In this document: one piece after another, positions 10,656 to 64,000 of the stretch
Numbering within the stretch: the stretch's first letter is position 1
Layout of the letters: each line of letters begins with the position of its first letter
NCBI GenBank assembly: GCA_002633005.1
Contig: NMRA01000472.1
Location: 39,959 to 103,958, forward strand
Length of the DNA stretch: 64,000 bases
Direction: 5' to 3'
Origin: Phoronis australis
Taxonomy: Eukaryota; Animalia; Phoronida
Made by a program: the position numbers and the translations under genes
Notes under the pieces: generated by a model
What the model saw: the letters and a program-made list of their open reading frames with translations, nothing else
Database searches by the model: none
What the model was told of the DNA's origin: nothing

Positions 10656-10805
10656 CCTCCCGTTCAGTAAAGCTAGGATCTCGCTCACAAGTAAGACTTC
10701 GCGAGATTACGGGTGACATTACTGTGTATTTTAAATGAGAACAGGTGACTTTGACTAGATTTTGGCTAGGTCCTAGCGTAAGTCCTAGCGTTACTGAACA
10801 CACGC
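10656..10805. mobile_element. 150-bp Harbinger-like MITE overlapping the stop codon of paralog 3
   Basis: Imperfect TIR CCTCCCGTTCAGTAA / TTACTGAACACACGC with CTG TSD (10653-10655 and 10806-10808); further copies at ~14945-15092 and 55642-55791. Confidence 0.85.
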
Positions 10806-11804: not shown

Positions 11805-12567
11805 TTTTTGTTTGGACAATTCCTGTAGACTTCAAAACAAATTAAGCTAAAGTAATTAGGTCACCGTGTTTACGATGAAAGTCTCTTTCCAGTACTTTGG
11901 TCTGGATATGCTGTTGACAAATAGGTCGGTGTTAAAATGCCTACTTTGACGTTCATAAATCTTCCCACGTACAAGAAATGTGATTCACAATTAATGCTTT
12001 TATAGCATAAGGTGCGATCTGATTTCACGTGAAGATTGAAAGTTGTCATATCATTTGTGAAGAATAAGACTCGTTCACGCGAATCTTTTTCAGGATTTTT
12101 TTTCCGGAATGTATTCCGAATATTTTTTTGCAAACGTGCAAAAGAGTGAAAAAAGCCAATAATTCCCCAAAATCCGCAAAAAAGATTCCCATGAATGGGT
12201 AAACCGTACCAGTTAATCTGATGGCTTCGACACGTTCATCCATACATAGCATCAGACTATCCAACGTATGCACATTTAATTCGGACGTGTAGTAATGACG
12301 TATCTACCACTAATACGCCGCGACTTGGACCTACACTTAGGAATGGACTTGCACAGTCACATCACATTTTCAATAATTTTGCACGTCTTGGACTTCTTTC
12401 CAAGTCAGGTAAACAAGGATGAACTTGTGTTTCGACAACGGTTGAACCCATTGCAAGCTACCAAAGAGTTGAGAAGGATAACGATTGACCGGGTTCTAAT
12501 CATTTTACTCGAAATGTAACTCGACATTATATTTGGCATTTTCTATTTTACTTTTGTGCGAGCTTAA

Positions 12568-16158: not shown

Positions 16159-16185
16159 CTATAGCGCCACACTGCAGGAGATGAA
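16159..16185 (-). CDS. Calpain terminal coding exon (FISCSVAL-stop)
   Basis: tttattttcag|TTC ATC TCC TGC AGT GTG GCG CTA TAG; length and hydrophobic pattern fit the final penta-EF-hand helix. Confidence 0.8.
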   Translation of the reverse strand, partial: FISCSVAL

Positions 16186-43100: not shown

Positions 43101-46100
43101 CTCAGTCGGACCAGCACTAGAGGTTAGGCCAAGGCCCGCAAGACAAGTCGTCATGGAAATTTATTTGTTGGAATATCGAAGGTCTAAAGCATAAAATACA
43201 GAGATCTGATTTTGTAAATNATATACAATGCTCTTATACCATAACATCTATATTTTGGTATAACACAATGGGGGTTCAATAATTCTACGAGATTGAAACT
43301 TCTGCAGAAAAAATGCTTTGAGAAATGTTACCACTTCTTCGCTTTTTTCACACACAGAACCAATTTGTAGGGAAATCAAAACACTCCTTCTTGACGACAT
43401 ATTTGACCAAGCTTGTCTAACATTCTTTTACAAATTCAAACATAATTAATTGTTAACAATTTTATCCAATTCCATCAGTCATCAAGAGATCGTCCAAGAA
43501 TATGCAGTCAACAACTCCTCCTAAAACTGCCCTCCTACAACAGAAAAAGCTGTGAAAATTCCTCAATGGCCAAAATACCGAATCTAATAAGCAACTGTAT
43601 CCTTCCGAGATATATGACTGACAAAATCGACACGCATAGTTTATATGGGTTCACCTTGTATTTAAAAATTCAATATCAAGCACTTGCAGCTCTCAATGTA
43701 ACATTCTACATCGTTATGCATGTTCTAATTTAAGTAACCGTGATCATATGCTTTTCTAATCATGCAGTCTCTCTTGTATCAATAGTCTCTGTGCTTTATT
43801 CTTAGTAAAGTATATTAATTTACATTTTAAATAAACTAGCACTGCATCTTATTACATTGTAGTTGTACTTATTTCTGTTGTTATTTATATTCATTTGTTC
43901 TTCTTAATTGTTAATATCTATTTAACTTATTGTTACTCGGTAGTCAGCTAGTAGCGGCCCGTGCCTTTGCTGGTCATCCAGTCATATCACAAGGTATGTT
44001 TTATATGATTTAAAAAAATAAATATCTCTCTCTCTCTGCACGGTTTAGTCCACTGCGTCAAATATGTAATTAAGTAAAATGAGCAAACCAATTCACATGC
44101 GTTTCCCGTTTAAGTAGACAGAATAGTGAAACCAGTTTAAGCCTATAGTTATCGAAAGAAATCGACTAGACTGTCAAAAGGTTACAGTATGTCATTTTAA
44201 AAGCGTTTTCACAAATTCCTTCTTTTTGCTGAGAATCAATTGTGCCCAGTTTTGGAGCGCATGCTGTTGCTTTTAGTATCATTCCTGTAACTATTGGCTT
44301 TTACGCCTAATTTCGCTGCAATTGAAAATTATTGCTATCGTCGATCGCCCCAGCATCGACTGACAAGCGAAGTTGAGATACCGGGGCTACAAACTAAAAA
44401 AATAATTTTGCGTAAATCTCTGTGTCCAAACAACCAGCAATATTCACAGACTGGTGGCATGAATGTATTATAAAGTCTTGTGTTCGACATTTACTCGCCA
44501 CTTTAAGAGAAATCTGCATTTTGATTGCGGGTCTCCATGAAGCGAAATGCAATCTTCAGCTTGTTTACTCTAGCGCACGCGCTGAGCATTCTCAGCTGGA
44601 AACCATGGACTTGTGCATGGAAATAATGGTCGAAATTATGGAGAGGGGTGTTCTTTCAGGTTATCATATTACAACTACGTTGGCGAAGTTAATAAAATCT
44701 CGATCAGCACATGGCACACGAACGACGTCAGTTTAAAAGTCGTAAGTGGCAATGAACTTTTGGAACGTCAATTTCTGGCTGTAACACCATGTGTAGTATA
44801 TATACTGATCATACAACTTGACCTATGTATTCTATCATTACAGCGTGCGATACCAAGACTAGCCGCGAGAATTTGCACAGTGAATTTCCGGATGTTTATT
44901 CGACTTTACCTTGATTGAGTGTTGTAGTTATCAAACCACGCCCAATTTCAACAAACATGATAATTACACTGGCCATCATTTATATGCACCGACCTTTGAC
45001 CCTGGCAAGACGTCGAGAATAATCTGGCCTCCATATCTTTTTCAGTTTGAATCTTAGAAGCACTTTCGAAAAATGGAGAAATAATTACAAATCAAGAAAA
45101 CTTTACTCTGATGACAGTTCTTCTGAAAAAAGTGAAATAGAGAACCTCAATGTTTCAAATAAGCTTCCCCATAATTTTGCTATGGAGTTTGAGGGACCCC
45201 TAGCATATGAAGAACTCTGGTCTGTATTGAACAGCTCAAAAATGAAAAAGCCCCGGTCAGACTGTTTCACAAATGAATTTTTTAAGTTTTTCTTGAAAGG
45301 CTTAGACTAATTTATTTTAAGACACATAAATGAAAGCTATGAAAAAATCGCAAAACGGGGGTTGTAACTTTAATTCCAAATCTAGATAAGGCTAAAAATC
45401 ATAAAACCTGGAGACCAATAACTTTGCTCAACAGTGTTTACAAGTTGGCATCCGGATGTATTGATAGACGAATGAAAAGGCACTGGATATATATTTTCCC
45501 CGAATCAGACGGAATTTATAAAAGGGAGCTGTAAGGGTGAGAACATAAGATTGAACTATGATGGCTGTTATTACAAATAGATTTTGAAAAAGCTTTTGAT
45601 AGTCTGTCATGGAACTTCATAAATAAGGTTTTGGATATTTTTAATTGCAAGGCGTTAAGCGTTGGATTAAAAATTTTATAATTGTCCGGTGTCATATAAT
45701 GATCAAAACGGTTTTTTGTCCAAAAGTTTTACTCTGCACAGGGGCTGTAGACAAGGTAATCCTCTTTCTCCATATGATTTCATTTTATGTGCTGGAATGT
45801 TCGTGCTACTTACGTAATCTCAAATACAGTATTGTGTAATATGAAGACGAAACAAGATAGGGAAATTAAAGGCTTTCAAATAGGAAATGATAAATTTATA
45901 CTTACTCAGTATGGTGATGACAAAACGTTTTTCTAAGATGGTTCTTGGCGTAGTTTGAAAACTACTATGGAAGTTTTGATTAAATATGCAGAATTGTCTG
46001 GAATGAGAGTAAATTCTTCCAAAAATGTTATTTGGATGGGCAGTAAAAAATTTGTAAAGATGTTTTCCATCATGCAAGATGGAAGTCAGAATGGGGCATA

Positions 46101-49100
46101 ACGGAATTTAAGATACTAGGTATCCATTTCAGTGTTAACCTAGAAAAAATAATTAACATCAAATACAATGAGAGGATTGAGGAAATCAATAATTTTATCA
46201 AAATTTGGTCTAGAACAGAAATCTCTTTTTTGGGTAGTTACGGTGGTAAAGATCTTTGTGGTGCCAAAATTATTTACAAAATGACAACCCTGCCTCCTCC
46301 ATCACACATATTTAAGATTGAATTAAACTCAAACATTTTAAAGTTTATTAGGAATAACAAAGTTGAGAGAGTGAAGAGAGACGTATTAACTAAAACTAAT
46401 GAGAAAGAGGGAGGGAAAATGATGAATATAATTCATTTTAACAAGGCTATAAAAATTTCATGGATAAAAAGACTACTTACCTCTGAATAAAAATGTGTGA
46501 AATTATTTGAACTTGAAACATTGGATTGCAAAGTCAAACATTATAAATTTTGGAAATGATTACTTTTAGAATCATACTGAAGTAACCAATCCGTTATGGA
46601 ACGAAATACTAAGTAATTGGTATTTGGTCATAAGTAAACAGCCCCATAAAGATCCGAATGATTTGCTCTAAACAAGTTTATGGCATAATAGACAGAAAAC
46701 CTATCTTCTTTAGCAAGTATGCTAGTGGTGGTGTTCTTTTTATTAATGACCTACTTGATGAAAATAACTGGTTTTACTAATTTACTGAATTTTAAAAAAT
46801 CTCGAATATAGCTACGCACTTTTTGGAATATCGTTCTCTGATTAGGTCTATTAGGCTGTTTCTGAGGAGAACACCATAAAAATGCAGTTAATTAAGATAT
46901 ATGGACCAATAATACCTTTTAATATCCGTAATTTTTAAACTGCACGTCAATATGTAAAATGAAATTGTTTGCACGAACAAAAGTTTGCCTATTGCCCGAA
47001 AAATATTTCAAGAAGAAGGTTATAACTTTGGAAGTGATTACTCGAAAAATTTATATTCGTTGTCTTTTAAAACTACTTACGATTTCAAGTTATGTACACT
47101 GCAGTTTAAACTATTACATAGAATATTTGTGACGCACTCTTTCCTGATGTATGTACTTTCTGCTAGTCACAAACTGAAACAGTGGATCACATCCTTTTCG
47201 AATGTAATAATATAAAAATATGGATAGAAGAATTAGCGCAGTTGAGTGTTGTCGGTAAAAAGTATCAATTTGATTATCGACAAAAAACAATGATTTTTAT
47301 ATTGTCAGTGATAATAGACATCGGCTAATGTTTTACTACAAAGATTTAAGAAAAATAATCCAGCCACATGATAGTTCCATTTTCCCATTCGACTAAAAAG
47401 AAGAAACAGGATGATTCGATTTCAAAATAAAAAACACTGTAGGGAGTTTTTGGTTGTTAGGTCTCCGTTCAACAAAAACGCTGTCCAGACGTTCTTTCAC
47501 CTTTGAGTTCTGGAATGGACCCAGATGTCCCGCGTTTTATCCGGAAATTCCGCTTTTCAATTCAGTTGTCTCGGTTCTTTATTCTCGAGTACTGACAACT
47601 ATGCAACAAATGTTCAAAATAACATTGTCACTTTGTCATGGATATTTTTATTATCCAGAGTCCACTATCTTGAGTAACAGAACATTGCAAAATGTGTTAC
47701 AATGTCTCTTGTTTAGGGTAGCACATATCACACGTATTATGAGCTGCAGAAACAGGCTTATTTGTAAACAGCTATGGAAAGTCCTACACTGCAACCTGTG
47801 TAATGGTCTCTACATTGTTCATTTCAAAGCTACATAATAGACGCTTGTTCGTTTTTTATCTTTCAGAAAACTTTATCTGCAAATTTCGAATATGTAGTGG
47901 GAGTAATTAGCTCATCACGTTGTTGTAGATGTCACTGCCTCATGAATTTTTACTAAAGAATTGTATCACACGTGACCCTATGGCCCAATTAATATGGAAA
48001 GATGTAACTATGATTTGGGATGAACGCCTAGGTAAATTTTTCACAGCAACTGTGACTGGTCCATATTCTTATAAGTATTTGTCTTGATAGGGTAGAAATG
48101 TTTTGAATCATCAAAATTCTTTCCCTGATGGTTTAATAAGTCATTTATAAACCCTTCCTGGTTCGTTACTATTACACCTTGCTATTTTTTGCATTTCGGC
48201 AACACTATGAATTTTAGAATTAAAAAAAAATGAGCTGGTCAGGCATGAGATATAATAATTATTCATGAATTAATGTAATGTATTTATCGTTTGCTTCTGG
48301 TATAATCATACACCGTTAAAAACTGCCGGATGAAGAGCTTTCTTATGATATGACTCTAATTGGTTCAAAAACGGCGGAGTTTTAGTGATAGTAAATTCTA
48401 TAGCATTAACCAACACCGGAACAAATCAATGTAAACAAATTCCGCTTTCTCAAAACAATATAATCGTAATGCAATAAATGAAGATTTTTTTAACAAAATA
48501 AACAGGATTTGTTAAAAGTTTCTATTTTTGGTTTACACGTGGTGAAACAGCGAAATGCCGTCTAAGTTAATCGTCTCTGAACTACATTTTTCACAAAATA
48601 ATAAAATTTCAGTGTAAAAACGCATGCTTACACGTTTGACACTGAAGCGTAAATTGAAGCACAAATTACACACAACACACAGATGTACAATATAGGCCCA
48701 GTGTGATTTATATTCAATATTTAATCATTTTCATTGTTAATACAATTAGAGTTATTGATTTCAATCACTACTTAACTTTAGTTGCTGATGTTATATTATG
48801 GAAATTTACCTTGTATATACTGTAGCCTATGCACAACAGAGGGACACCAGTTTCTCTCTTCATCTTTCGTCGATTCTTTTGCATTAAACCGATGACAAAG
48901 GAGCAAAGGTCATCCGTATCATCGTCAGTGTCCTCGGCGTTGACGACGAACTGGGGATTAGTGGCAAAGGTATCTGAAGTTTCGAGAAAAGAAGTCAGGC
49001 AGATAAACGTGCAGAGGTTTGCCAAACATTGATAGATTGTATAAATACGGACAGATCCCTAGTTCGATATCAGCTTGAATGGCTACCTGGAGAGCAATTC

Positions 49101-52100
49101 CTGTTCCACGATGAATAATTGATTGGCTTGAGGGATCGGTCTGTATTAGTTATGACATACGACCATCGAAATTTCATTTATCTGATTTTTCACTTGTTAT
49201 TATTGGGTTGGTATTTTCTTGCCTGGTAATTTGATGTACTGGCATCGTCTACTCGCAATGTTGTCAGGCAGAGTTTTGTAGTTTCAGCAGCCTTATTGGT
49301 TCTGGCGTCTTGAATTAAAATTAAAAGTGGTATTTCGTCACGGCCTAGCCGGTTGACGTTGCGCCGTAATGATAGTTATCGTACCGCCTGTTACCCAAAC
49401 ATAGAACAGAAGTATGAATGATCGTGAGATAAAACAGGGCAAAAGTTACATCTGGTTCAGCATTGTTATTACTCAGTGAGAACCAAGACACCGAGACTTT
49501 GGTTGAAAACTTGACTACCAGTTTAGCCTCGCAAACACCCTGTTCTAGAAACTGGCTATGTGTTTGGCTGACAATTCTGCAAGCGTTATGTAAGTATCGA
49601 AGTGGACAGCTTAAATCCTCCTAGTCATATGGATTTCAGGAGTAGATAGCGCGGTCAGTTTGACGTTTACTATGTTACATGTGAATTCAAAAAAGCCAAA
49701 TGTCAGGCAGGTAGCTATGTTGTTACATGCAGCTGGGCTGGACTGGCAGACAATTACTAAAGTTCCGTTAGCAAAATTTGACGATCACTACTAACGGAAA
49801 AAAACGTTGTGTCTGAACGTTAACCTTTGTGTATGCGTGATCAACGCTGGAAAGAAGCCGCACAGTATTTGGTGACGGTCCTCAGAAGGAACATTCATTA
49901 GCGAAAATTGACGACATCTTCAGGGCTGCTTAGTCAGCAAGGAAACAGATTTCAGTCATGTCAGTACACTCTTTCGCGGTGATACGAAAGGTAGCACTGT
50001 GGAGTGTTGTTCAACATGGCTTCTCATTGGTTAGCTAATGAAATCGACGTCATGACATTCAGTCATTCCCATTGGTTGAAATCTGGGAAACCCTTTCAGT
50101 TTACCGTTACGCAGCATGGCGACCACCTTTGACCTGAATAGTTGCAATTTATTAAAACGGGTAGTGATCGAAGTAAATAAAATCAAGAGAACCCCGATCC
50201 CGTGTACTGTTTATAATGTTTCCACAGGGCCACTTTTCAGTAAAGGTGGCGCTGTGTCAGAGGGTACCATGTCAAATTGACAAGTGTGACGTCACTGAAG
50301 CAGTTATGCTTACATACAGGAGATGGACACACGTAAGGCATGAAAAAGCATCCGGTATGAAACAAAACCGAAAGGGCCACCCACCAGCCGTTTCATTAGT
50401 ATGGTGCAAAACGTAAAGGGGGCCAGCGTATGGACAAGACTGCAGCAAGTATAATGAGAAAATCACTTCCGCAAAGTATGCAAGGGCGGTAGTTTGTAAA
50501 CATGTAAAGACACTCAAACTTAACGGCGTGAACATTGTAGTTAAGCTCGTCACAGGCGCGCTGAAGAGAATACGATTACACTTTCAGAGTATGAAAGACT
50601 TCTTAGTCCTGACCTCATCGTCTGTGTTGGTTTCAAAGTGAAGCAACTTGGCAAAGTACTTCTGGGTGTGTCTGCATCAACTTCAGGCGTCATGATTCAA
50701 GATGTGACTGATATTAATAGCCTACTGTTTTTGAGTGAGTTCTCTTGAGACCAATTAATAGGTAGTTCAGCGCACTATTCATGCCAGTCAAACAACCCCT
50801 GTATTCTCGTCATCCACTTGGATAATCCAATGTTTTCTCAGGGCTGGGTAAATATGAGACCAAATACCACATAAAACAGCTTATCTTTTTAAATGCCTTA
50901 ATTTTATTAAAATGACACCATAAAAAACATTTTCGAGACTCGAAAGTGAGTCTCTATATTAATATAGGAACCCACCGAGGACCACCAAGAGTGTGGCCCT
51001 CTATATTGATATAAGGGTCACAGAGTTTTGGACGCGTTCAGTCAGAATGATCTACATCAATATAGAAGGCTTCTCTTTTTGGCCGCTTTCCAATGGGCCG
51101 CCTATGTTAATATAGGTCCCCACTTTTGAGGCCTAAAATGGATGTCATTCTAATAAAAACGAATTAAAATAAATAGCTCTTATTCAAATAGGCAGCAATT
51201 CATTTTGAGCCTCACAAGTGGGAATCCCTTTACTAATATAAGCGGCCCCCCGAGGACCACCAAGAAAAGGCCCCTATATTGGTTTAAGGGTCAAACTTTT
51301 TGTTCGCCTTCAGGTTGGGCCTCCATACTAATATAAGCGTTTCCGCTTTTTGGCCGCTTTCAGGAGGGGTCCCTTAAATTAATAATGGAATTAAATGCTA
51401 AAATCATGTCATCCCCACTTCCCATGTGTACAAGCAACGTTAAGTGGTACATTGTTCTGTAGTATAATTGGCACACAAGATGCGTCGTGGTGGCTGATGA
51501 CAAGTCATACTGTTCGAACACTTTTGACGCTCCTTGGAGAGGAAAAGATTTGCGCGCATGTCATTTAGCATCTAATCTGACAGTGACGTCAATTCAAAGT
51601 GCAATGAGCAAACCTTTGATGACATCCCTGGTGTCCTCATTATTGCAAATGTGTGATTATGGCTGCCGGCAGTGAGATCGAGCATGATGTCATTCTTAGG
51701 AATGTGATGGACCGTACGCGCAAAAGTACATTGGGTTCAATCGGTCCACAATTCAGTCTAAATTGAATACTGTCATATACATCGTCAACGTGATCTGAGT
51801 AGATGGCTTTGCTCTTTTCCCAAGAAAGCAGAGGCTATCAGACACATCGCAGTCTCATAGTTTGGTCTTGGGTCATGCCTACACCTAGATGGCGCTTACT
51901 ACCTATACATCCGCTGTCTTGTGCTAACCTTGCTGGCGATGTTGCTTGTCGTCCGTCTCCACACATGGAAGCGATTGTTCATGCTTTTATGCAGTCAGCC
52001 CCTGTCTCTAGCACAGAGCTGGTATATTTCAAATCTGCTACTGTGAATGATCATGACATGCAAACCTACGTCAACACACTTTGCAAGGTTGGTCGGACGC

Positions 52101-53481
52101 GCTTTCTGCTGTGAGCCCTGAACTTATTAGTTTCTGGAATTTACGATCTGGAATGAGGCTGAAGGCTTAATTACTGTTTTACATTGATCGCATCATTGTT
52201 CTACTGTTTTGCGGAAATCAATGCATCACCACGACATTTGTGGCCACATCACCACGGTGGCATTCGGTGTTGGTAAGCTTGTTGTCAAACAGTGCTTCTC
52301 AAGGAAAGCATTGACACTGACAAGGAGTTCGTCTGTCAACAATAGTCTAAGATCAGAAAATATTTTGTTGAAATAACAGTTTGGCTTTCACTAGGGGGGT
52401 TGGGGGTGATAAATGACGACGAGGAATGAAGTGCTTAATAGCTTTTCTGTTTCTCTTGCATCCGTGTTCTCTGATTATGGGACAAATGATTGTAACACAC
52501 ACCCAGGCACGCATACACACACAAGCACACACGTCACTTATCTATTTACCTATACATCAAATTGGCTGGAAATTACTGCTGAACATATTTAAGCTTTGTT
52601 TATTTTTCTCAATTTCTTAATATGTACACGTATTAATACTTCTTTGTCCGCAATGAGGATTGGAAGGAAAATTGTGCGACGTTTGGATGACTAAGGAATA
52701 GCACATTGTGCGCAAGGGAATATGTGTTTCAAAAGACGACCAACAAACGTTGTTTCCACTTTTTGATTTAAAATTTCCATCAATTTTTTTACTGTACTGG
52801 ACATGCCTTTCTTTGCCAGTTTGGAATCTACACATATTGGATTTCTTATCCCATTTCCATTGCTTTTGGGAAGTTTGTACTTGTTAATCACCGTTCTTAC
52901 TGAGAAAGTTGCGACAGCCTCCAGCGCTAAATCCTTTGAGCCACTTTCCTGTTTCTTGACGCCCCTCCCATGACTTCGCCGAGATATCGCCGGTCACTGA
53001 ATCTGGTCCCAAGGTACAAATTTCCAACTTGTCGAAGTATCTCATGAAGTCGCTGAATGACATCCTGTGATAATTGAGTTAAGAAAGTCCTAGCATAGAG
53101 TATCACAGACCGGAACTCATTCATTCACCCAAAACATGTCGAGGAATGTCCTAACTAATGCATTTGTCGGAAGTGTTCATTGACTTTCCATGCGCAGTCA
53201 GCCTAAAATATAGGGGGGCTAGAATTTTTCGGTATGCGGACCTTTTACTGAAAGAAGTTCACAAGGACTAAAAAAACGGGGCCACTAGGTTCAGGCCGAC
53301 GCACCGTGCATCCGCACCGACTTCCCGTGAATTTTATGGACTTTTGTCTCGTGTACTCGGACTTTTTGTTTCACTGAGGCGGACCTTTTTGCCCAATTCG
53401 CCAAATTGCCCCTACCCCCTCCTGGGTGCGCCTATGGTTACGTACACTGTAGTGCAAATTGTCATATATCTATACGTGTGT

Positions 53482-53519
<38 letters not shown>

Positions 53520-56500
53520 GCGTGTGCGTGTGTGTGTTAACGAAGAGGGTGCTACCAAACTGTTTGGTAGCAGCCCGCGGTCATTTTGTACACCAACATG
53601 GCCGAAAAATAATTCTAAGCAAGAAATAGCTAATAATAGCACCATTCACTATGTTGAAAATCACACGTTTCGGCTAAAGATTTTGGAATCGCTATTGATC
53701 AGTCATGAAAAACCTGTGTTGAATGAGCAGCTCACAGGTGTGTAACGCACGCTGGCTCTGTTTCGGTAGGGTTGTGGCTTCCCACCGTGTGTTGCATTCA
53801 CACTCTCTGCTATTACGCCCCCCCCTTCCCGCTGTCGCGTGTATTTCATTGTTTAATTCGCTACGTACATGTATATGATCATTCCACTTATTGCCTGATG
53901 ACGAGACATGCAGTCTCGAAACATAGCTAGTATTTTAAATAGAGAATCCAGCACGATTCTCAGGTTTATGACATGGGCAAAATCGGAAATAGCCTCGGGA
54001 TTTTGACGAAATTTCCTTGAGGTTTTGTCCATGTCATAAATATGAGACGACTGTAGGATTTGTTTTCTTAAATGAACCGTAAAACGATCTTTTTTGCTGA
54101 AAAACTCGACGTTTCTAAAATTTTCAACCACACGACGCAACACGCTTTCGCAATGTAAAGTAATTCAGTTACTTTTTGCTAATAAGTTTATTTTAAGCTT
54201 AACAATTGTAAATTGCATTCAACTTTTGTAGCAAATATTCAACTAATAAATAGTGTTTGAAGTTGTAATATTAAAACTTTAAAAAATATTATAAATAACA
54301 GCCAGCAAGGCTTACCCGCGCGTGAGCACTGAACTGACCTTGAGACAGCACAGCTAGACAGTCTCACCGCGTTTCTTGAGTTTGGCTCTTCTCCGTTTGA
54401 ATGAACGTGGGTATGGAATTCGCCGCTGAAGATGGGTCCGTATAAGAAGTTGTTTGCATGTCATTCCGATTGGGAGTGTGTACACTTGCGACACCCGATT
54501 TGTCAGTCATAACCTTGTCACCTCGGAATTCCGGCATTGTTTGATTGGCGCTCGTTTGGTTGTTTTAGTGTTTTGCAGACGATAAAATGTGTGGCATATG
54601 GATTTCTACTTTGCACCACTTTGTGATTTGCAAATGTAATATAAAAAATTACGTACTTGGTGTTATTAACCAGTCGTGTCTTAACACATTCCAGGTCATG
54701 TGAGAATTTGTTTGTTCGTTATGTCTCTTGGTGTTTTCACACCTAGCCCGGAGAGAATGTTGAGAGTTGTTGCTGTTATTTCACACAAAAAGTACATAGG
54801 CAAATCTAATGCAGCATAAGATAACACTATCTAAAAGTAAGAATCAACACGGAATTCAGCAGTACGAAAAATATCACCAAAAAGAAAAAAAAAACAACAC
54901 ACAGAGCTAAGCAGACAGAAACACAGAATCCCTATTAAAACTTCTCCAGGTAAGCTTTCTAAAGTAATTCACAAGAGAGATACAACATTTAAATATTTTC
55001 ACCAGTTTCTTTAGTTTTGAAAATTATCAATTCCCACAAAATGCCTTTTACATTAAAATCGTTGTCTAACTAAATAAAGAATTTACCCGACGTTTGACAC
55101 GACTTTTCAAAGTACGAGATACCAAAAGCTGGTAACTTACCAAAATTCACCATCATCTTCAAAGGTTAGCCCCATTTTTCGCTTTTCAGAGTCGCTCAAT
55201 CCCCTCCACTCGCTAGACCTGGAAATAGATCGTTTCTTAAGATGCAGCATATGCACGCATAAGGTCTGATTGATTTTTTGTGAGATATGAAGCAAGGTAC
55301 GTGGATTCCAGTCCCGCTCCCCTTGACGTGTACTGAGCTAACCTGAGCAACGTGCCGAGTAAACAATAAGATTTATCATATTAGCTTGTATCGACAGGAA
55401 AAAATCTTCAAATAGAACAAACACCGAATTCAATCCCACAATTCGTCAATTCAGCCCCATCGACAAATCACTTCAGTTGCTACGATAGGCCAATTAGCTT
55501 CCGAGAAAACTTGCGAAACACTAGCTCGCTTTTCATTCGTGTAATTTTGCGAGGTTTTGTGAGATCTTACTTTCTTGCAAGAAACGCTCTTCGTGTACTT
55601 TTCAACGGAAGTGCGTGTGAGGTTTGTAAGTTCTAATGCTGGCGTGCGTACAGTAACGCCAGGACCTACACCAACACCTTGCTAAAATCTATCCAAAGTC
55701 ACGTGATCTCATTTAAAATACACGGCAATATCTCACGTAATCTCGCGAAGTCTTGCTTTTTAACGAGGTCCTCGCATTACTGAACGGGAGGCTGGTTTTG
55801 TACATGCAAACAAAGAGCAACGCATACACGACCATCTTGTGAATTATACGCAGTCTTCGTTACTCACGGTAGATTAAAAGTCATTTATGCGTGTACCTAG
55901 GACTATTAGCATCTATTTCTAGAAGTAGTCTCCACTTCTGCCGCGGCTACCAACAAACAGCACACATACCAGGCATTTACTTCGAAAACCAACAATAGTG
56001 TTTATTCTATATACGGATTTTGGTCAGAATCATATTTGCATGTTGCCAAATATGGGTGTAAGGTTATCATTACCTCACAATCTCGGACATCGAAAGCAAT
56101 GCCAAGTGATCATTTATAGTTTTGGTAACTGGATTTTATGACTAGCTGCAACTACTCTCAGTCATGTTTTTTCAATCTCGATTTAGTACGATTTTTGTCG
56201 AACTATTTTTGAACGGACTCACCAATGTCGCCCATCCCTTCCACAGGTTACAAAAGTGTCCATACTTGAAAATGAAAAAGCATTTAGGCCATACCGCAAG
56301 GAGCCAATTCCAATAGCACCCCACAATAACCTAATGGAACTTTATGTGTTTATGCATGAACATTGAAAATAGAACAGGGGCAATGGGAAGACAAAAAAAA
56401 ACGTACGATTAATTCAATTTCGATGTGCTTGTTAATAAGCGAGACATTTTGAAGGCGTGACAGGACATGTGCCAAAGATTAAGAGCCCGAAGCCCCATTA

Positions 56501-59500
56501 AAAGCTGGATAGTTGGCAAGTATACCTTGTTTGGCACTTCTTGGTGAGCTGACTCGCTGGTCAAGCTGATATCGTCACCTGGTGAATGAGATACAAGAGC
56601 AATCTCAAAGTAGAGGTACCTATGTTAGCTATGGAGGTGGATTTCGAGAGGGACTTACTTGTCACCCCACGCCCCATCCCATTCTCTCTCGTTTTCCCAT
56701 GGGTTACGGACACGTACAAGTTCCACGCTGTTGCCACGAAAGTTCACAGACGTTGCACCCGTGACGCTATATGGATGACCTTTAATCAGACCGTGATCGG
56801 CTTTTGCTTGAATTTCATTTGGAGCCGCCTGAAATGTGACATGAAAGCACTGTAAAGCTTAAAGGTGAAGGCAACCTTTTTTCATGTCATTTTTAGCAAA
56901 AATAATGTTCGTTGATTATCCCAGGCGTGTTTTTCACTCATTTACTGCTTTTCGTAATTACTCTCCGCTTACACGCGCAGAGTACTGTTGTTCCTGGGTT
57001 TTCTTCAATTTTATTACTGTGCGCGTGTAAGCGCAGAGTACTGTTGTTCCTGGGTTTTCTTCAATTTTATTACTCTGCACGTGTAAGCGCAGAGTACTGT
57101 TGTTCCTGGGTTTTCTTCAATTTTATTATTATTCTTATTCTTATTCTTATTCTTCTTATTCTTCTTCCGACCATCTTTGAGGCTTAATAACTCCAAATTG
57201 GGTGCAGGTACGGTCTTTAAATTCAGCATATGACTTTTGACAGTATATAAATTTTGATTGGTTATATAATCATATTCCATATTGCACCGGAAAAGGTCGT
57301 TTGGTGCAAAGGTCATATAATTTTCAAAATGCTACTCCTCCTTCAGTTTTAAAGCTATCTTTTTCAAATTCGGTGCACAGGTATAAGTCAACATGACAAT
57401 TTAAAAAATTACTTTTCTAAGTAATCGGGTCATCNNNNNNNNNNNNNNNNNNNNNNNNNNNNNNNNNNNNNNNNNNNNNNNNNNNNNNNNNNNNNNNNNN
57501 NNNNNNNNNNNNNNNNNNNNNNNNNNNNNNNNNNNNNNNNNNNNNNNNNNNNNNNNNNNNNNNNNNNNNNNNNNNNNNNNNNNNNNNNNNNNNNNNNNNN
57601 NNNNNNNNNNNNNNNNNNNNNNNNNNNNNNNNNNNNNNNNNNNNNNNNNNNNNNNNNNNNNNNNNNNNNNNNNNNNNNNNNNNNNNNNNNNNNNNNNNNN
57701 NNNNNNNNNNNNNNNNNNNNNNNNNNNNNNNNNNNNNNNNNNNNNNNNNNNNNNNNNNNNNNNNNNNNNNNNNNNNNNNNNNNNNNNNNNNNNNNNNNNN
57801 NNNNNNNNNNNNNNNNNNNNNNNNNNNNNNNNNNNNNNNNNNNNNNNNNNNNNNNNNNNNNNNNNNNNNNNNNNNNNNNNNNNNNNNNNNNNNNNNNNNN
57901 NNNNNNNNNNNNNNNNNNNNNNNGCCAATTTCTTTTCATATAGTCTGGCTGTGAGAGCAGTCGAGTCAGTCATTCTTTTACCTCGGTTGTGGTAAGTTCG
58001 GTCGTCGTTTGCTTTTGCTTACGAGTCAGTCAACATGCCACGCTGTTGCTGCGTACTGGGGTGTACTCATTATCGTCTCACGTACAGAGGAAGAACTGTC
58101 CCACTTGCTCGAGTGTTCGGCGACACACCCCCACTGGAGGGTGATCTGAGCACCCAAACTGCTTACATCCCGCCGTGTGACTCCCTCGTCACACACCTGG
58201 CACCTTCCAAATAGCTCCAATACAAGTCCACAATATCAAACTTACGCTCACCAATCCATTCATTGGATGACGAACTGTCCTCTTCACTGGGTGTCGAACT
58301 GGGCCTGTATTCACTCCCACTACAACATCGCTGCAGGGCTGCTTCCAGGCTATGCCGGGGCTAGAGACAACAACACAGGGCGAATCACTGATAGTTCCCG
58401 GAATTGCACCCAATGGAGTACATTCGGAGGCACGGGTGACAGTAGATGAAGTGCCTTCAGTCACTGTATATAGTGGCCATAGCTCGCGAGGCTTCTCGCT
58501 TCAAAAACGCACTTCTCGGGGTTGGCGACTGGGCACTGCCGGGAATCAACAGCGACGATATGGTACCCTTCTTCAGGCTTTCGCAGGGACCTTCATCAAT
58601 TCAGCGTATATATCTCTGTCATAATCTGACTGCAGAAAATGCTTGCCACACACTCGGTAACCCTCCACTGCTTTGTACTTTGCGTGGACGGGTAGCGCTG
58701 CGTTCTTCACATGAACGAGCTAGTCAAGTACGGCGAAGTGTGTCATCCTTCGGAAAGCGACGCAAGATACCCAAAGCGCGTGTGAGACGATAATGAGTAC
58801 ATCCCGGCACGCAGCAACAGCGTGGCATGTTGACTGACTTGTAAACAAAAGCAAACGACGACCGAACTTGTCACATCCGAGGTAGAACAATGACTGACTC
58901 GACAGCTCTCACCGTCAGACTATAATGAAAAGAAATTGACGCGAAACTCTTGCCTCCCAAAACGTCACTTCCGGAGTAGAGGACGAGAAATTAATCAAAT
59001 TACGAAAATCTGTAATTAAGTGAAAAATGTGTGGGATAATCAACGAACCTTATTTTTCCTAAAAGTGAATAAAAGGTTGCCTTCGCCTTTAACATTTAAT
59101 GTCGGTAATGCAAATTAAATACAAAGGTTACAACGTAACTACGGAGAGCGCTTATATTTCGGGTGTTTAAAGCTACCTTTGGCAAGATTTGACTGAGTAA
59201 AGACGACAAAGAGACAGTTTACTAAATAAAACTTTGCCTTGAAGGCATTCTATTTCCGTCACCTAATTCAATTTTCGGTTTTAACATCTGATAGGGCGAG
59301 ACGCAGCTTTAAAGAACATTTTTTAAAGTGTAATCCAATAACAATTGTTTTTTTCTTAAACTAACAAATTTTGTTTAGAACACAAATGCTGCAAGTAACG
59401 TATAGACGAGTTACACAGCGGAAAATCCTGCAAGGTGTGTCGTCTAGGAGGCGGTTTCAAAAATAACACAGACATCCCTGATTTTCGGGGTCCACTGTAC

Positions 59501-61871
59501 AGTGGTATAAAGCTGTCTTCAACTTACGTTGATTGAGCATCCCATTAGCGAGCCTCGCCTCAAAGACTTCTGTATTATCGTGAACACGCCAGATGGATCC
59601 TTTTTCAAATCAACTGTCTGAGATAACCCACCCGTGAGGTCCTCCATGGCTTCTATGGTTTGGCCGCCCTTCAGCGCCTCATAGGAGCCTACAAGTCTGT
59701 GACAATGGAGTACTCAAATTGAATACAACGTTGCTGTTTGACATTAACAGTCAGTCTACTGGGACACTTGGATTCACGTTTGAAAATTGCTCACATTTAG
59801 AGAGAGAGAGAGTGTGTGCCAGAGAATGTTTCACAATAACCTACAACCAAAATCGTGAATAAGGTCGCTCATTTTATATTTGGTGGCGCCTGGCTTAATT
59901 ACTGCAAAATAGCTAGTACATTGAGCAACTATGGAAAACTTTTGGTAGATAAGTCACCGTTTTCACATTTAACCCGATCTTAACGGAAAATGAAGCTATG
60001 CAAGAAAAGCTTTATCAATGTTAAACTAACCAGTGAACTCCATTCGGTTCATGGTTTCATCATTTAAAACTTGGCAGGCTAACTCGGCGTACGGAAGAAC
60101 CAAACAAGTAAAAAATGAGGTCCATCCCAAAATATGAACCAAAACTGCTTTGTTAAAATGGTGCTGCATGGGTTTTAAGTTGAGTTAATCGACATCTTTG
60201 ACATCGAATCACACGATCACCTTGTGACATAACGAGGAAGCATTTAACTATGAAAATACCTTAGTATCTCACGGAAAGGGTCCATTTTACAACGAAAGGA
60301 GATTGAATCATTTCTAGGTGAAATAACCAAAATAACCGTCAGCGTTCGTTCAAGTACACTGTGTTCACTCACTTGGCGTAGGCCTTCTCCAGCAAAGGAC
60401 TCCAAAACTCATTCTTGGACTCGGAGTGCAGGAACACCATCTTATTATTGTACGTCGGCAGACGGTCATCAACAACCACTTCTACCCACTTGCCGTACTG
60501 CCAAAAGTGGAATACGAACATACCACAGTAGTCCTTGTCAAATGACTGGTGAGGTGGCACGACACGATAGAGCAATTTTTCTTCAAGCGTAAGCGACGAG
60601 ATTGCAGCTAAAAGCCAGCTGTCGCCTGCGAACGAGTAAAAGGAGTCCATAGTACTTTCCTTCAGAACAGAAAACGGGTTTGGAGAAGGGCTCCTGCACA
60701 TGATAACGCTCAGGCCATCCCGGTTCAGATTCAGGAGCAAGAAAACGTGTCACCTTTAAGGTAACTGACTAACTTCGGTAACAAGGACCAATTTCTTTTA
60801 TTATTTTCCGAATCGCTTAGATTCAAACCTTCAAACGACACATTCTTTGGTGAGCAACTTTTTCCTGCATGAAATCGGATGAACGCATTTCCTATCTTTC
60901 TAGTCACGTAATTGAGTTTTTTTCAAAAATGTATCTTCCTGCGTTTTGCTCGGACGTAATTCTAACCTTGAGGGAATATTCAATCACTACGGGAGGGTAA
61001 TTTTAAGACTTGATGAGAGCAATTTTGTGTGATTTTCAAATACTTTTTCATAGAGGAATATATTCGCCCTCCAAAATCGAGGCATTGAAGGCCCTGGCTT
61101 TACAGGTTTTCTTCTTAACCTGGTCTGAAACATCATCTATGTGGGATAGTCATTGATGTTGTACAGCACAGAGAAAGAGCACAGTTTGTGAAAATTGTCA
61201 AAATCGAGCTGCCCATAAAAAAATGCGTTTCATCCGAGAGCACTCGCTACAAGGACTTTGCTCCAGGCAATAGTTCGCCGGGAATTTTTAACGGCGGTGA
61301 CCTGTTCAGACTCTAGTATGGAAAGGTGCTGTGTCACAACGATGACGTCAATATTCCAGTCGAGGCTGATTTTTCAAGAAGATGAAGGACGTTCCCCACG
61401 TGGGGAGATAAAATGAGAGGCAAAATGCGTCGTAATTAATTAGTGACTGTGTGCAATAAAAGAAATCAACATATGTGTTGCACACGAAAGTGCATATATG
61501 TTTAACATGTCTAAAAGACATTTGGCCTATGTTTTTCAAACTTTAGCTAGTTTAGATTTGTTTATTCTCTCTATTTCTTGCTTATCTAGTACTTTCTTTT
61601 AGTTGCGAAGAGTCAATTTGATATAGCAGTAATTGCCAATAATCGGTCCCACAGCCCGGCACCGCCGCCGACGCATCATTGTTAATGTTTACGTAAACAA
61701 TTTCCTCTGAAAATTATGGACAGCCGTTGCCGGGTGTGGGACGCTCACGTACACTGTACCTGCTAAGTATCAATGTATAAAGTGCATATTGAAGCACCCA
61801 CCTAACATCCCTTGATTGACATCGAATCGACTGGCTCCTCCAACGAACATTTGTGGATTATCGACTATTTC
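16159..61871 (-). CDS. Classical calpain-family gene (CysPc, C2-like domain III, penta-EF-hand); multi-exon, 5'-partial; catalytic Cys replaced by Ser
   Basis: 16 exons, all GT-AG with compatible phases: 61871-61802, 60625-60373, 59696-59528, 56828-56659, 55218-55141, 53064-52901, 48973-48810, 39403-39186 (or its copy 36981-36764), 33314-33278, 31006-30871, 26416-26358, 25599-25531, 24348-24270, 22213-22097, 19074-19016, 16185-16159. Total 1869 nt = 622 codons + TAG. Calpain motifs include [75 protein letters not shown] and the EF-hands. No first exon found in 62-64 kb. Confidence 0.95.
16232..16425. repeat. Dispersed repeat, inverted relative to 20832-21022
   Basis: About 190 nt of visible reverse-complement similarity, e.g. 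accattgtagtttgg / ccaaactacaatggt and aattcgtgcaag / cttgcacgaatt. Confidence 0.75.
16573..16759. repeat. 30-bp minisatellite, ~6.2 copies (TATCCTACATGCATAGGAATACTACTGCCA)
   Basis: Near-perfect tandem array with one variant base in the first unit. Confidence 0.97.
19016..19074 (-). CDS. Calpain EF-hand 5 exon ([19 protein letters not shown]), 59 nt
   Basis: ctttttgtag|GG AAT...GAC GAG|gtacgc. Confidence 0.9.
19175..19340. repeat. (TGTA)n/(TG)n microsatellite
   Basis: Direct reading. Confidence 0.9.
19790..20198. mobile_element. MITE (family of 7072-7783), preceded by a 32-bp tandem duplication at 19726-19792
   Basis: Inverted ends tgcatg...agtcctaaat / atttgggact...catgca; internal similarity to the 7.1-7.8 kb copy. 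Confidence 0.55.
20832..21022. repeat. Dispersed repeat, inverted relative to 16232-16425
   Basis: Reverse-complement similarity to 16232-16425. Confidence 0.75.
22097..22213 (-). CDS. Calpain EF-hand 4 exon ([38 protein letters not shown]), 117 nt
   Basis: tctttcag|GT ATC...AAA G|gtatgc; lies in ORF 22044-22283. Confidence 0.93.
24270..24348 (-). CDS. Calpain EF-hand 3 exon ([27 protein letters not shown]), 79 nt
   Basis: cgtttcag|AAA ATA...CAA G|gtctga. Confidence 0.93.
25531..25599 (-). CDS. Calpain EF-hand 2 exon ([23 protein letters not shown]), 69 nt
   Basis: ctctcag|GAA GAC...CAG ATG|gtatgt. Confidence 0.93.
25600..26357 (-). other. U12-type (minor spliceosome) GT-AG intron, 758 nt
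   Basis: 5' splice site GTATCCTT. Branch sequence TTACCTTAAC (25620-25611) ends 11 nt before the exon, with little pyrimidine tract. Confidence 0.92.
26358..26416 (-). CDS. Calpain exon ([20 protein letters not shown]), 59 nt
   Basis: attttag|TA ATG...ATA GAC|gtatcctt; matches the calpain FSxExCRS motif. Confidence 0.92.
26425..26650. repeat. Degenerate (AATAC)n microsatellite immediately upstream of a calpain splice acceptor
   Basis: Direct reading. Confidence 0.85.
27258..27412. mobile_element. Short hAT-like MITE
   Basis: TIR CAGTGGCGGATT / AATCCGCCGCTG; no clear TSD. Confidence 0.6.
30871..31006 (-). CDS. Calpain EF-hand 1 exon (FQKPTP...[20 protein letters not shown]...), 136 nt
   Basis: tgtttcag|TTC CAA...AAG A|gtaagc; lies in ORF 30755-31093. 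Confidence 0.92.
33278..33314 (-). CDS. Calpain linker micro-exon ([13 protein letters not shown]), 37 nt
   Basis: ttctcattccag|T TCC...CGC AAG|gtaagt; bridges phase 2 to phase 0, as the flanking exons require. Confidence 0.85.
33328..33956 (-). mobile_element. 3' end of a CR1/L2-group LINE running into the gap
   Basis: ORF2 C-terminus HEHYTRQ...HSLSS...CTIPNCFVC, a 3' UTR, AATAAA (33363-33358) and a (TAC)8 tail. Confidence 0.8.
33957..34540. other. Assembly gap
   Basis: Run of N. Confidence 1.
36764..36981 (-). CDS. Calpain domain III exon, copy A (VTDDDL...PSTFDP...), 218 nt; allelic or tandem duplicate
   Basis: Same splice sites as copy B. Three substitutions: GTG/ATG, GAT/GAG and a silent GGT/GGC. 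Confidence 0.75.
39186..39403 (-). CDS. Calpain domain III exon, copy B (MTDDDL...FINSREV...PSTFEP...YSEKPVSL), 218 nt
   Basis: tttttag|ATG ACT...CTC AG|gtttgt. Confidence 0.92.
39690..43010 (+). mobile_element. Degenerate CR1/L2-group LINE ORF2 (APE endonuclease + RT), antisense in a calpain intron
   Basis: [96 protein letters not shown]; many stops and frameshifts. Confidence 0.92.
43011..43219 (+). mobile_element. Fragment of a different LINE (start of an APE domain), truncated at the N join
   Basis: [18 protein letters not shown] resembles the W-N-I-x-G-L start of an APE endonuclease; absent from the duplicate at 43221-44010. Confidence 0.45.
43221..44007 (+). repeat. Duplicate of 42221-43010 (LINE 3' end) after the single N at 43220
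   Basis: Colinear, with a few SNPs and indels. Confidence 0.93.
45060..47300 (+). mobile_element. Degenerate L1/Tx1-type LINE RT region
   Basis: [82 protein letters not shown]; multiple lesions. Confidence 0.88.
48810..48973 (-). CDS. Calpain domain III exon (TFATNPQF...EDTDDDTDD...IGYSIYK), 164 nt
   Basis: acttcag|AT ACC...TAC AAG|gtaaat; lies in ORF 48768-49025. Confidence 0.94.
50925..51390. repeat. Two diverged ~200-280-nt tandem units, each internally palindromic (MITE/satellite-like)
   Basis: ccgaggaccaccaaga, taagggtca and ctttttggccgcttt occur in both units; ccacttttgaggcctaaaatg is inverted against cattttgagcctcacaagtgg. Confidence 0.6.
52901..53064 (-). CDS. Calpain exon ([18 protein letters not shown]...SAGGCRNFL), 164 nt
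   Basis: atcacag|G ATG TCA...CTC A|gtaaga. Confidence 0.94.
53476..53537. repeat. (TG)n/(TGCGTG)n microsatellite
   Basis: Direct reading. Confidence 0.95.
53610..53945 (+). mobile_element. Penelope-like element 3' remnant (GIY-YIG C-terminus) followed by a hammerhead-like core
   Basis: [20 protein letters not shown] matches the E-x-x-x-I...P-x-L-N end of PLE endonucleases; CTGATGA-stem-GAAAC lies about 150 nt downstream. Confidence 0.65.
53885..53940 (+). ncRNA. Hammerhead ribozyme-like motif, probably degenerate
   Basis: CTGATGA (53895-53901), extra C, stem GAGAC/GTCTC, GAAAC (53918-53922), palindromic TAGCTA; stems I and III imperfect. Confidence 0.5.
55141..55218 (-). CDS. Calpain exon ([26 protein letters not shown]), 78 nt
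   Basis: tttccag|G TCT...TTT TG|gtaagt. Confidence 0.94.
55642..55791. mobile_element. 150-bp Harbinger-like MITE, opposite orientation to the 10656-10805 copy
   Basis: GCGTGCGTACAGTAA...TTACTGAACGGGAGG flanked by CTG on both sides. Confidence 0.8.
56659..56828 (-). CDS. Calpain exon with catalytic His and Asn ([11 protein letters not shown]...[19 protein letters not shown]), 170 nt
   Basis: atttcag|GCG GCT...GAC AA|gtaagt. Confidence 0.95.
56959..57434. mobile_element. Nested non-autonomous element (Helentron/HINE-like by structure) with a triplicated 56-bp terminal unit and (TTATTC)n
   Basis: Interrupts the Kolobok TIR at a TT. Each 56-bp unit starts with a 26-nt hairpin and a microsatellite follows. 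The other end is lost in the gap. Family assignment is inference. Confidence 0.55.
57435..57923. other. Assembly gap
   Basis: Run of N. Confidence 1.
59528..59696 (-). CDS. Calpain exon ([23 protein letters not shown]...GSLMGCSIN), 169 nt
   Basis: cacag|A CTT GTA...ATC AAC|gtaagt. Confidence 0.95.
60373..60625 (-). CDS. Calpain exon (G-DSWLLAA...[13 protein letters not shown]), 253 nt; nucleophile position is Ser
   Basis: ttcgcag|GC GAC AGC TGG...GCC AA|gtgagt; lies in ORF 60369-60740. Confidence 0.96.
61802..61871 (-). CDS. Calpain exon ([24 protein letters not shown]), 70 nt
   Basis: ttttgcag|GAA...TTAG|gtgggt; contains the oxyanion-hole Gln. Confidence 0.93.
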
Positions 61872-62814
61872 CTGCAAAAGAGCAGAGACAATTAATTAAT
61901 GAGCTCTGAACTGTAACAGAGCTTATCGTGTGTACTTTCACTTGGCAATCTACTTTTTCCTGTATAACGCAATGAGGTATTTCCAAATCTTCACAACAGC
62001 GCTAACATTGAGAAGTAAGTCAAATTAAATGAAGTCAAACTGAATGAAAACTAAGACATGTACGAATGGCAATTGCAATTATAATTCACACGAAAAGCAT
62101 TCATTCTTAATCCAGAAAAATTGACAAGTATCTCGAACCGCTGCCTAAGGGATGACAAACTCGCCAGAGTTCACTTGGTCACATGATACAAATCCTAACT
62201 ACTTAAAGCCTACCCTGAATAGGCAATTTATCCCATACGCGTTGAATGACTCGAGTGCAATACGGCCACGTGATATTTTTTCCGTATTCACCTCCCCCAC
62301 TACTTCAACAGTGCCTTCTGACATGGAAAGTTTAAAAGGTAGGTCAATGTCGACTCGACGTCGTTAGCTGGTTCGATCATCAAACTTTCCGAATATAGTA
62401 TTACAATTACAGCTCAGTATAAATAACACTCAACATGCAATCAGGTTCCAAACGTAACATCTGGTATAAAACTGATAATTGACACTTCTGTCTCAGTTTT
62501 CAAGTGCTAAATATTATACCGTCTGCAACTCAGGTGCCGATTCCTCATTAACTACAATATCAAATAATTGTTGTTATTTAACTATTTTAATGAAATGTTA
62601 CATGTTCAATGTTCGTTGTTATCTCTTTTCAAGTAAGAAACCGCTGCATTTAAAACTGTTTCTTTTACTAGAGAACACTTGTAACCTAACGCGCAAGTAT
62701 ATATTACATATACATGTATATATAGGATGTAATCCGCCACGTGAACAGCCTGGGTGAAGGATAAAATCTGCCGAAAAAAATGAAAGAAACTTAGGAATTT
62801 GGGAAGCGTATGGG

Positions 62815-62975
62815 TTAAATACAAAACGTACCTAGATTGGAGTAGATGGAATAACATCCCACTCTACATTATTCCGCATATCGACCGAGACCGAAGGTCG
62901 GGGTCGATATGCGGAATAATGTCTCGTGGGATATCAATTCATCTACGCCACTCTCGGTACGTTTTGTGTATTTAT
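62815..62975. repeat. ~160-nt palindrome with a perfect 21-bp inner stem
   Basis: ACATTATTCCGCATATCGACC (62866-62886) pairs with GGTCGATATGCGGAATAATGT (62902-62922); apical GACC-GAA-GGTC; imperfect outer arms. Confidence 0.9.
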
Positions 62976-63889
62976 TTCCTCCAATATATCAAAAGCATCA
63001 CTCTGACCACAACGAAGTCAAAGAGAACGATTAAGCTTAGTGGCCGACTTTCGTCAACTGCCACCGCAAGAATTCCTAACTACGAACGAGACCCTTCCGG
63101 ATTGGTGTCCTTAGATGTACTGCGGTACCCGCGGCAAATATTTACCGGGGTACCTCTACCGCGGGTACCGGCTAATGTTCGTAACTAGTGCGAACCACCG
63201 ATATGTTTTATTGTTCTGTAGATCTGTTTTATTTTTCTGTTGTTCTCACGGCGTCGTCATATGGCTAATTAATTTATCATAATTTTACTAACCGCGGTAG
63301 GAGTGTAAGATCTTCAGCGACTCGAGAAAACGTTTAGGAGTGTTGGCCAACCTAAAAATTGCGATATCTAAAATGGCGCACGTGCGCATTGTCTGTGACT
63401 TGGTAATGGAAATAGAATTCTTTCACGGTAAAGAATATTACGAGACCGATTTCATGAGAGTAAGAGCTCCAATTCAGCGTCTGTTTTATTGACCCAGTTC
63501 AAAATGACGAATGCAGCTTAAATGCGCGTTTTTTGTCCTGGGAAAGCAATCGGCTGTGACTATCAGAATTATCCAATACATCGAGGATAAGCAAAGTCCA
63601 TTCGCGGAAACCTTTGAATTTACTTCGAGATTCACTAGGAATGTTTCACAAAGACTGTTAAAAATGGTGTCAAGTTGTTCCTTTCTCAGATGATAACAAA
63701 GGAGGCGAGTAGCAGTTGGCAAGAACAACAACTTTGTATTGAAACTGTTGTTGGTCCTAGTGTTGTTCGTGCCAAGCCGCCTGTGCTTTCTTTTAGTCAG
63801 GTGAAAGATCTGGCGACTACACGTATCTCATATAAGCAGATAAATGTGAAAACTGCTGTAAAATCCACATCAGCAGAAATACGTGGAAC

Positions 63890-64000
63890 CAGTGGCGGAT
63901 CTAGGATATCACAAGGGGGGGGGCCCAACATTTTGTCCGGCTGTAAGCATTTGTGCAAACTGAACCACGATTGTAGATGCGCATAGCACCGAATGGGGGG
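63890..64000 (+). mobile_element. hAT-like MITE left end, same family as 450-680
   Basis: Near-identical to 450-552; cut by the window edge. Confidence 0.7.

Follow-up and report, generated by a model that had tools for sequence, protein, structure and literature searches.

A transcribed classical calpain gene of Phoronis australis with serine at the catalytic cysteine position

What becomes of a calpain whose catalytic cysteine has turned into serine while the rest of the enzyme stays in place? The question is raised by a gene on the minus strand of a 64,000-nucleotide stretch of Phoronis australis DNA (here, the window), in which the nucleophile codon at 60620-60618 reads AGC, giving GDSW with Ser. 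An initial annotation had described this gene as a full-length classical calpain of 622 codons in 16 exons, and had read it as either a pseudo-protease or a serine-nucleophile enzyme. We find a transcribed and spliced gene for which a non-catalytic role is the likeliest reading. Its features are as follows, with stranded RNA depths and read counts given in the order of three RNA runs.

61802 to 61871, minus strand: first exon in the window (EIVDNPQ...QGML, with the oxyanion Gln), 70 nt; RNA depth ~14, 22 and 1
60373 to 60625, minus strand: nucleophile exon of PC1 (GDSWLLAA...EKAYAK), 253 nt; PF00648 at 130.8 bits; RNA depth ~10, 24 and 2
60618 to 60620, minus strand: AGC (Ser) at the catalytic Cys position, aligned to the Cys of calpain-8 (2nqa) and to the Ser of calpain-2 chains 1mdw and 1u5i
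59528 to 59696, minus strand: PC1 exon ending GCSIN; joint to the next exon in 26, 30 and 2 RNA reads
56659 to 56828, minus strand: PC2 exon with His at 56777, His+1 Pro at 56774 and Asn at 56705; NPWE in the window, NPWG in RNA reads
55141 to 55218, minus strand: PC2 exon with EDDGEFW, from homologue alignment and RNA
52901 to 53064, minus strand: end of PC2 and start of C2L, from homologue alignment and RNA
48810 to 48973, minus strand: C2L exon with the acidic loop; at 48940 Asn in the window, Thr in all RNA reads
39186 to 39403, minus strand: C2L exon, copy A of a tandem block, from sequence comparison
36764 to 36981, minus strand: C2L exon, copy B, the one in the model; PF01067 at 68.3 bits
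33278 to 33314, minus strand: linker exon, 37 nt, from frame and GT-AG only
30871 to 31006, minus strand: PEF exon with the EF1 loop, from tblastn with homologues; no Pfam hit by itself
26358 to 26416, minus strand: PEF exon, from homologue alignment
25531 to 25599, minus strand: PEF exon with the EF2 loop, from homologue alignment
24270 to 24348, minus strand: PEF exon with the EF3 loop; EF-hand_6 at 24.8 bits, just below the cut-off of 25
22097 to 22213, minus strand: PEF exon with EF4; PF21875 at E 0.0003, below cut-off
19016 to 19074, minus strand: PEF exon with EF5, the top-scoring candidate
16159 to 16185, minus strand: probable last coding exon (FISCSVAL and stop), the least certain, chosen by pyrimidine tract and length

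The sixteen exons give 1869 nt, or 622 codons and a stop, with zero internal stops, in agreement with the initial annotation. Fourteen of them, bounded by GT-AG introns, provide 594 open codons, and the exons at 19074-19016 and 16185-16159 bring the total to 622. The 218-nt C2L exon occurs twice (39403-39186 and 36981-36764, three differences between copies), and the frame is open only when one copy is used; with both it shifts. The tandem block of ~2.5 kb that carries them (within 34876-40000) has copies 91-99% alike and adjoins an N and an assembly gap, and it likely represents both haplotypes assembled side by side, a recent duplication being the alternative. The description as full-length is not borne out: the model has no initiating Met and opens near residue 84 of its 700-aa homologues, and a search of 61872-64000 gave no scoring N-terminal exon. 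The first ~80 residues, and with them at least one preceding exon, must be encoded beyond the window. The CysPc domain is found by PF00648 on two exons (130.8 and 55.5 bits, cut-off 23.8) and the C2L domain, or domain III, by PF01067 (68.3 bits, cut-off 21). EF hits on single exons fall just below Pfam cut-offs, and the PEF domain is identified by colinear 54-57% identity across ~625 residues with PEF-bearing calpains.

The introns and flanks hold other elements. A high-copy element is present in two copies, 88-94% alike, at 57924-59026 (in a calpain intron) and 12721-13828, on opposite sides of the 3' end of the gene; the broken frames of the former resemble a THAP domain, and a 27-aa piece of it gave no Pfam hit. 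Further intronic sequences at 39965-41369, 45023-46487 (plus strand) and 33564-33956 (minus strand) look to us like LINE endonuclease or reverse transcriptase fragments. Downstream of the calpain on the minus strand lie three single-exon ORFs (6009-6599, 8440-9816 and 10794-11831), two with weak CD20/MS4A-like Pfam hits below cut-off and a third of similar appearance with no hit.

At the catalytic site, QGMLG-DSW is assembled across the GT-AG intron 61801-60626. The catalytic His codon (CAT) lies at 56777, followed by CCA (Pro) at 56774; the catalytic Asn codon (AAC) lies at 56705, and the Glu codon of NPWE in the window (GAA) at 56696. Every motif named in the initial annotation (oxyanion Gln, EWxGxWxD, EDDGEFW, acidic loop, EF loops) is in the model. 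The acidic motifs of the core and EF loops, which we take to be Ca2+-binding, are thus present in the model sequence. The residues expected of an active calpain protease (MEROPS C2), namely oxyanion Gln, His, Asn and Trp, are all retained, and the catalytic Cys is replaced by Ser. A dead calpain has been defined by replacement of at least one triad residue (PMC11387712), and this gene has one. On residues only, Ser with His and Asn kept would also suit Ser-type papain-fold enzymes of the silicatein kind.

We considered whether splicing could bring back a Cys. The start of the intron reads GGCF, but there is no donor between this TGC codon and a stop; a second GT combined with an inner AG yields GGW; and a second copy of the nucleophile exon is absent from the 64-kb window. 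The Ser codon itself creates a CAG (60621-60619) seven bases past the true acceptor, which would throw the transcript out of frame if spliced to the normal donor, and no joint using it is among the RNA joints listed.

Is the gene transcribed, and do other samples carry the same residues? Three RNA runs (same species label, from other samples in another study) and DNA run X3 were aligned to 48700-62000, a region covering seven of the 16 exons, with 18-19% of each RNA run read. Exon-bin RNA depth came wholly from one strand in all three RNA runs, which fits a minus-strand transcript, and intron repeats drew RNA reads from both strands. Expression over five exons was ~1-20 reads per kb per million, and the joint 56827/59527, the sole exon joint among those listed, was crossed by 26, 30 and 2 reads. 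Like known dead calpains, the gene thus has an open frame and is expressed, RNA having been assessed over those seven of the 16 exons. Among the differences listed, four exon positions differ from the window in every covering RNA read: 61809 and 56688, both silent, 48940, where Asn in the window is Thr in the RNA (15/15, 29/29 and 14/14 reads), and 56695, where Glu (GAA) is Gly (GGA) in 7/7 and 26/26 reads, the third run being without coverage. NPWE is therefore an allele of the window's haplotype, and transcripts read NPWG. The initial annotation had counted three active-site changes; with NPWE withdrawn, only Ser and the His+1 Pro remain as likely shared ones.

To place these two residues among calpains, we compared 340 fetched proteins. 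At the catalytic position, covered in 334 and uncovered in 6, 321 have Cys and three have Ser: Plakobranchus ocellatus 'calpain-a' (GFO35617.1, P0129), an Okeania-MAG protein (F6K23_09440, P0003) and a Priapulus 'calpain-C-like' protein (P0324). P0129 and P0003 keep His and Asn, and P0324 is also without His. By this sequence comparison Ser at the calpain nucleophile site is rare, not unique, and the earlier remark that natural inactive calpains use other substitutions was too strong. Pro after the catalytic His occurs once among the 340, in P0121, whose Cys is replaced by Ala, and never among the 247 with an intact triad. Our literature search found no published account of a classical calpain with a natural Ser-His-Asn triad, but cases may be listed in Table S1 of PMC3315469 or of PMC3563603.

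The gene has no near relative in the databases. Its best full-length identity to any database protein is 57%, and the closest row by identity, P0129, reaches 61% over 424 columns. Searches with the Ser exon returned no orthologue among proteins of 148-2000 aa (best 78%), among those of 46-147 aa (best 76%; of 60, 21 have Cys, 39 are without the motif and none has Ser) or among 50% representatives (best 71%), so the Ser change cannot be dated and no dN/dS is obtained. The pattern GDSW[LF]LAA, restricted to AGY codons, matched 36 loci in metagenome contigs, of which none was a calpain; relatives of P0008 were absent from viral contigs, and an ESM Atlas search returned generic Peptidase_C2 clusters only.

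Published experiments bear directly on what a Cys-to-Ser change does to a calpain. It is reported to abolish autolysis and activity in Aplysia CCal1 (PMC5650170) and to inactivate the CAPN5 core (PMC7001764), and calpain-8 C105S is described as inactive yet intact and as keeping calpain-9 stable and active (PMC2912385). For calpain-3, complete loss is said to need Cys-to-Ala (PMC11387712, citing Ye 2018), so trace activity may be possible after Cys-to-Ser. Dead calpains are reported to be common, some with phenotypes (PMC3315469, PMC11387712): one survey counts 344 inactive calpains (PMC3315469), over half of calpain variants are given as inactive in some protists (PMC3563603), and inactive calpains have arisen several times in insects (PMC11387712), where fly CalpC interacts with CalpA and CalpB (PMC11387712).

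Our preferred reading, held at about even chances, is that this classical calpain, transcribed and spliced with Ser in place of the catalytic Cys, gives a dead, calcium-binding and non-catalytic partner of an active calpain. The pseudo-protease half of the initial annotation is thus its likeliest part, given expression, splicing, an intact frame, retained Ca2+ motifs and the inactivity of published Cys-to-Ser calpains. The Ser hydroxyl would be unable to stand in for the thiolate, and proteolysis would be lost, while the retained acidic residues of the core and EF hands would still bind Ca2+. The PEF domain could pair the protein with itself or with a Cys-type paralogue, which it might stabilise, localise or damp; this pairing is proposed by analogy with calpain-8 C105S and calpain-9, and with CalpC and CalpA/B. 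The cleft may meanwhile be drifting, with Pro at His+1 and, next to the catalytic Asn, an allele with Glu for Gly, which would favour a role as scaffold or subunit over one as substrate trap. In the cleft, the position after His (Ala263/273) is given as one of the calpastatin contacts (PMC4057710), and Pro at this position argues against a faithful substrate trap; that suggestion of the initial annotation is weakened.

A less probable but substantial alternative is that the gene is a dispensable calpain paralogue, recently inactivated by one transversion, still transcribed and with no selected role. TGC to AGC needs one base, and a single recent substitution would leave the remaining protein equally conserved. 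Constraint on the sequence speaks to both sides. Compared with 94 intact calpains, the model departs from them in 10 of the 138 columns that are highly conserved, and its conserved/variable ratio of 0.135 (median 0.06) ranks 75 of 92; judged from the alignment, conservation is inside the range of intact calpains but in their lower quarter, which suits a dispensable copy. Four residues are absent from all 94 (Ser26, Met86, Pro183 and Glu209), three of them at the active site. Ser aside, two of 18 columns near catalytic residues are changed and one of 119 elsewhere (p 0.045, post hoc), and that single change among 119 counts against a gene released from selection. This pattern hints, at the level of the alignment, that constraint was lost on the cleft alone. 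The argument from clustering of active-site changes, made in the initial annotation, loses NPWE, however, and what remains is weak: without the allele-specific Glu209 p rises to 0.25, in other windows p is 0.06-0.27, and 10 of the 94 intact calpains likewise carry a residue of their own no more than 3 positions from a catalytic one. The two amino-acid differences between the window's haplotype and the RNA samples (Glu209 and Asn313) are both off the family consensus; as derived alleles they favour a dispensable copy and, as sequence changes, may also fit relaxed constraint. Introns that hold transposon-like repeats and a duplicated exon block also favour a dispensable copy. On the other side, Ser and the His+1 Pro, never seen in intact calpains and lying in separate exons, appear common to other samples, all 1869 nt and the splice sites are intact, and expression is moderate in 3/3 RNA runs.

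It is improbable that Ser is a segregating allele, with Cys in other individuals or on the other haplotype and the gene an ordinary active calpain. The species is highly polymorphic here, as NPWE versus NPWG and the 91-99% identical copies of the duplicated block illustrate. Among the RNA differences listed, however, none falls at the Ser codon (60618-60620) or the Pro codon (56772-56774), and a fixed Cys in the RNA samples would likely have ranked beside the four fixed exon differences, which are of similar depth; an allele at half frequency would not have, and could escape that list. As indirect evidence, all three RNA runs have some reads that cover 61809, a position 7 nt ahead of the joint to the Ser exon, and show no other difference. 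The His+1 Pro, found in 0/247 matches with an intact triad, also argues against an ordinary active enzyme.

Very unlikely, in our judgement, is a calcium-gated serine hydrolase, in which Ser-His-Asn and the oxyanion Gln would have gained esterase, peptidase or other chemistry in the manner of silicatein, the Pro would have remodelled the pocket, and the sea-slug and cyanobacterial-genome Ser-His-Asn calpains (P0129 and P0003) would be convergent cases. The existence of those two proteins, the retention of Gln, His, Asn and Trp, and the reported need for Cys-to-Ala in calpain-3 (PMC11387712) speak for it. Stallmach et al. state that they know of no cysteine peptidase scaffold with significant activity after Cys-to-Ser, and they describe SERA5, a precedent cited in the initial annotation, as non-enzymatic (PMC4671257); the serine-nucleophile half of that annotation finds no support. 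The window's haplotype also tolerates Gly-to-Glu next to the catalytic Asn. The predicted fold of P0121, used as a proxy for the His+1 Pro (pLDDT 78.8), has this Pro opening the strand that follows His and is uninformative on activity.

Phylogeny likewise resembles loss and not a switch of chemistry. In a 28-row tree of hand-picked rows, with broken-triad rows included on purpose, the model falls inside a 14-row clade (94/96) with no supported sister; the clade holds Nematostella P0134 (XP_001632256.1, by accession the NEMCCAL1 of Hastings 2017), proteins from jellyfish, a crinoid and sea slugs, and four with bacterial labels. The clade comprises 28 rows (0.974) in a 133-row tree, eight with broken triads, lost variously to Ser, Ala, Asn, Val, Phe and by His-to-Leu. 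Outside it 4 to 9 of 105 are broken (p 0.0004 to 0.009), with counts read by eye from a set biased by its queries, and counting the four bacterial-labelled rows as one weakens the enrichment (p 0.013 to 0.14). Grouping the three Ser-His-Asn proteins (the model, P0129 and P0003) as one clade is rejected (p 0.0003), mainly because the sister of P0003 has Cys; grouping the model with P0129 (p 0.35) or with P0324 (p 0.15) is not. P0324, the sole CalpC-like row and a long branch, joins the model's clade in one tree (90/98) and falls outside it in the 133-row tree. The gene may thus belong to classical calpain family C, the CalpC orthologues, for which Hastings et al. describe inactive members in fly, Daphnia and Branchiostoma (PMC5650170).

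Four proteins in these trees form an observation of their own. P0003, P0008, P0121 and P0137 are animal-type classical calpains that form one group (support of 96/96 for three of them and 85/96 once the fourth is added), each with a broken triad: Ser in P0003, His-to-Leu in P0008, Ala with the His+1 Pro in P0121 and Asn in P0137. Two of them carry bacterial labels (Okeania, Myxococcota). In the Okeania sp. SIO2C9 MAG (L001:5001-6416) the calpain gene is intronless, has a GC of 0.47 versus ~0.38 and lies amid bacterial-looking genes; it ends at residue 471, adjoining an ORF that we presume to be TnpB-like. Dead calpains may have passed from animals to bacteria, and our literature search found nothing on such a transfer. 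As a clade, these intronless classical calpains from bacterial-labelled contigs, all with broken triads, may merit separate study.

A sequencing or assembly error at 60620, conceivable for a single base in an assembly with gaps and a duplicated block, can practically be set aside, since all 36 sampled words of 60360-60700 are present in each of four DNA runs from a single 2017 sample (which may be the source of the window, and so is not independent of it, with a ~2% chance, if sampling was random, that no sampled word spans the base) and no fixed RNA difference there is among those listed.

How does the gene compare with known systems? Plasmodium SERA5 and sponge silicatein likewise have a papain fold with a natural Ser nucleophile, but they are family C1-like and have no Ca2+ domains, and silicatein condenses silica (PMC4671257), a chemistry of which there is no indication here. 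Were the Ser catalytic, this fold would gain its first calcium-gated serine enzyme; nothing here points there. Within its own clade, Nematostella NEMCCAL1 and hydrozoan and scyphozoan calpain-9-like proteins have the NPWGNEREW-type insert in common with it but, unlike it, an intact Cys-His-Asn triad. P0129 and P0003, from the same broad clade, share GDSW with His and Asn; they differ in being truncated records without PEF, and P0003 is of independent origin.

Drosophila CalpC, Rhodnius CalpA/B2 and B4, CAPN6 and C. elegans CLPR are also expressed calpains with replaced triad residues (PMC11387712, PMC3315469, PMC5650170). CalpC is, as here, a PEF-bearing classical calpain, whereas the dead Rhodnius forms are without EF hands. 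In contrast to these natural dead calpains, the nucleophile is the only triad residue changed here, with His and Asn in place, and the gene is far less diverged, with an end branch of 0.5 versus 1.84 for the Priapulus calpain-C-like protein.

The closest parallels are engineered. Calpain-2 C105S and calpain-8 C105S (PDB 1mdw, 1u5i; PMC2912385) likewise combine Ser-His-Asn with a CysPc-C2L-PEF architecture and are reported as inactive and structurally intact; the gene differs in being natural, in adding the His+1 Pro and in being an invertebrate-type paralogue with ~57% best database identity. Dead calpains as a class are already known and common, with 344 proteins in the survey of PMC3315469. 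If this gene is a kept pseudo-calpain, it would reproduce in nature the C105S mutant made in the laboratory, with all five EF hands and a core close to normal, and would offer a clean test of what a dead calpain does, as subunit, scaffold or trap, a matter as yet unsettled for CalpC and others.
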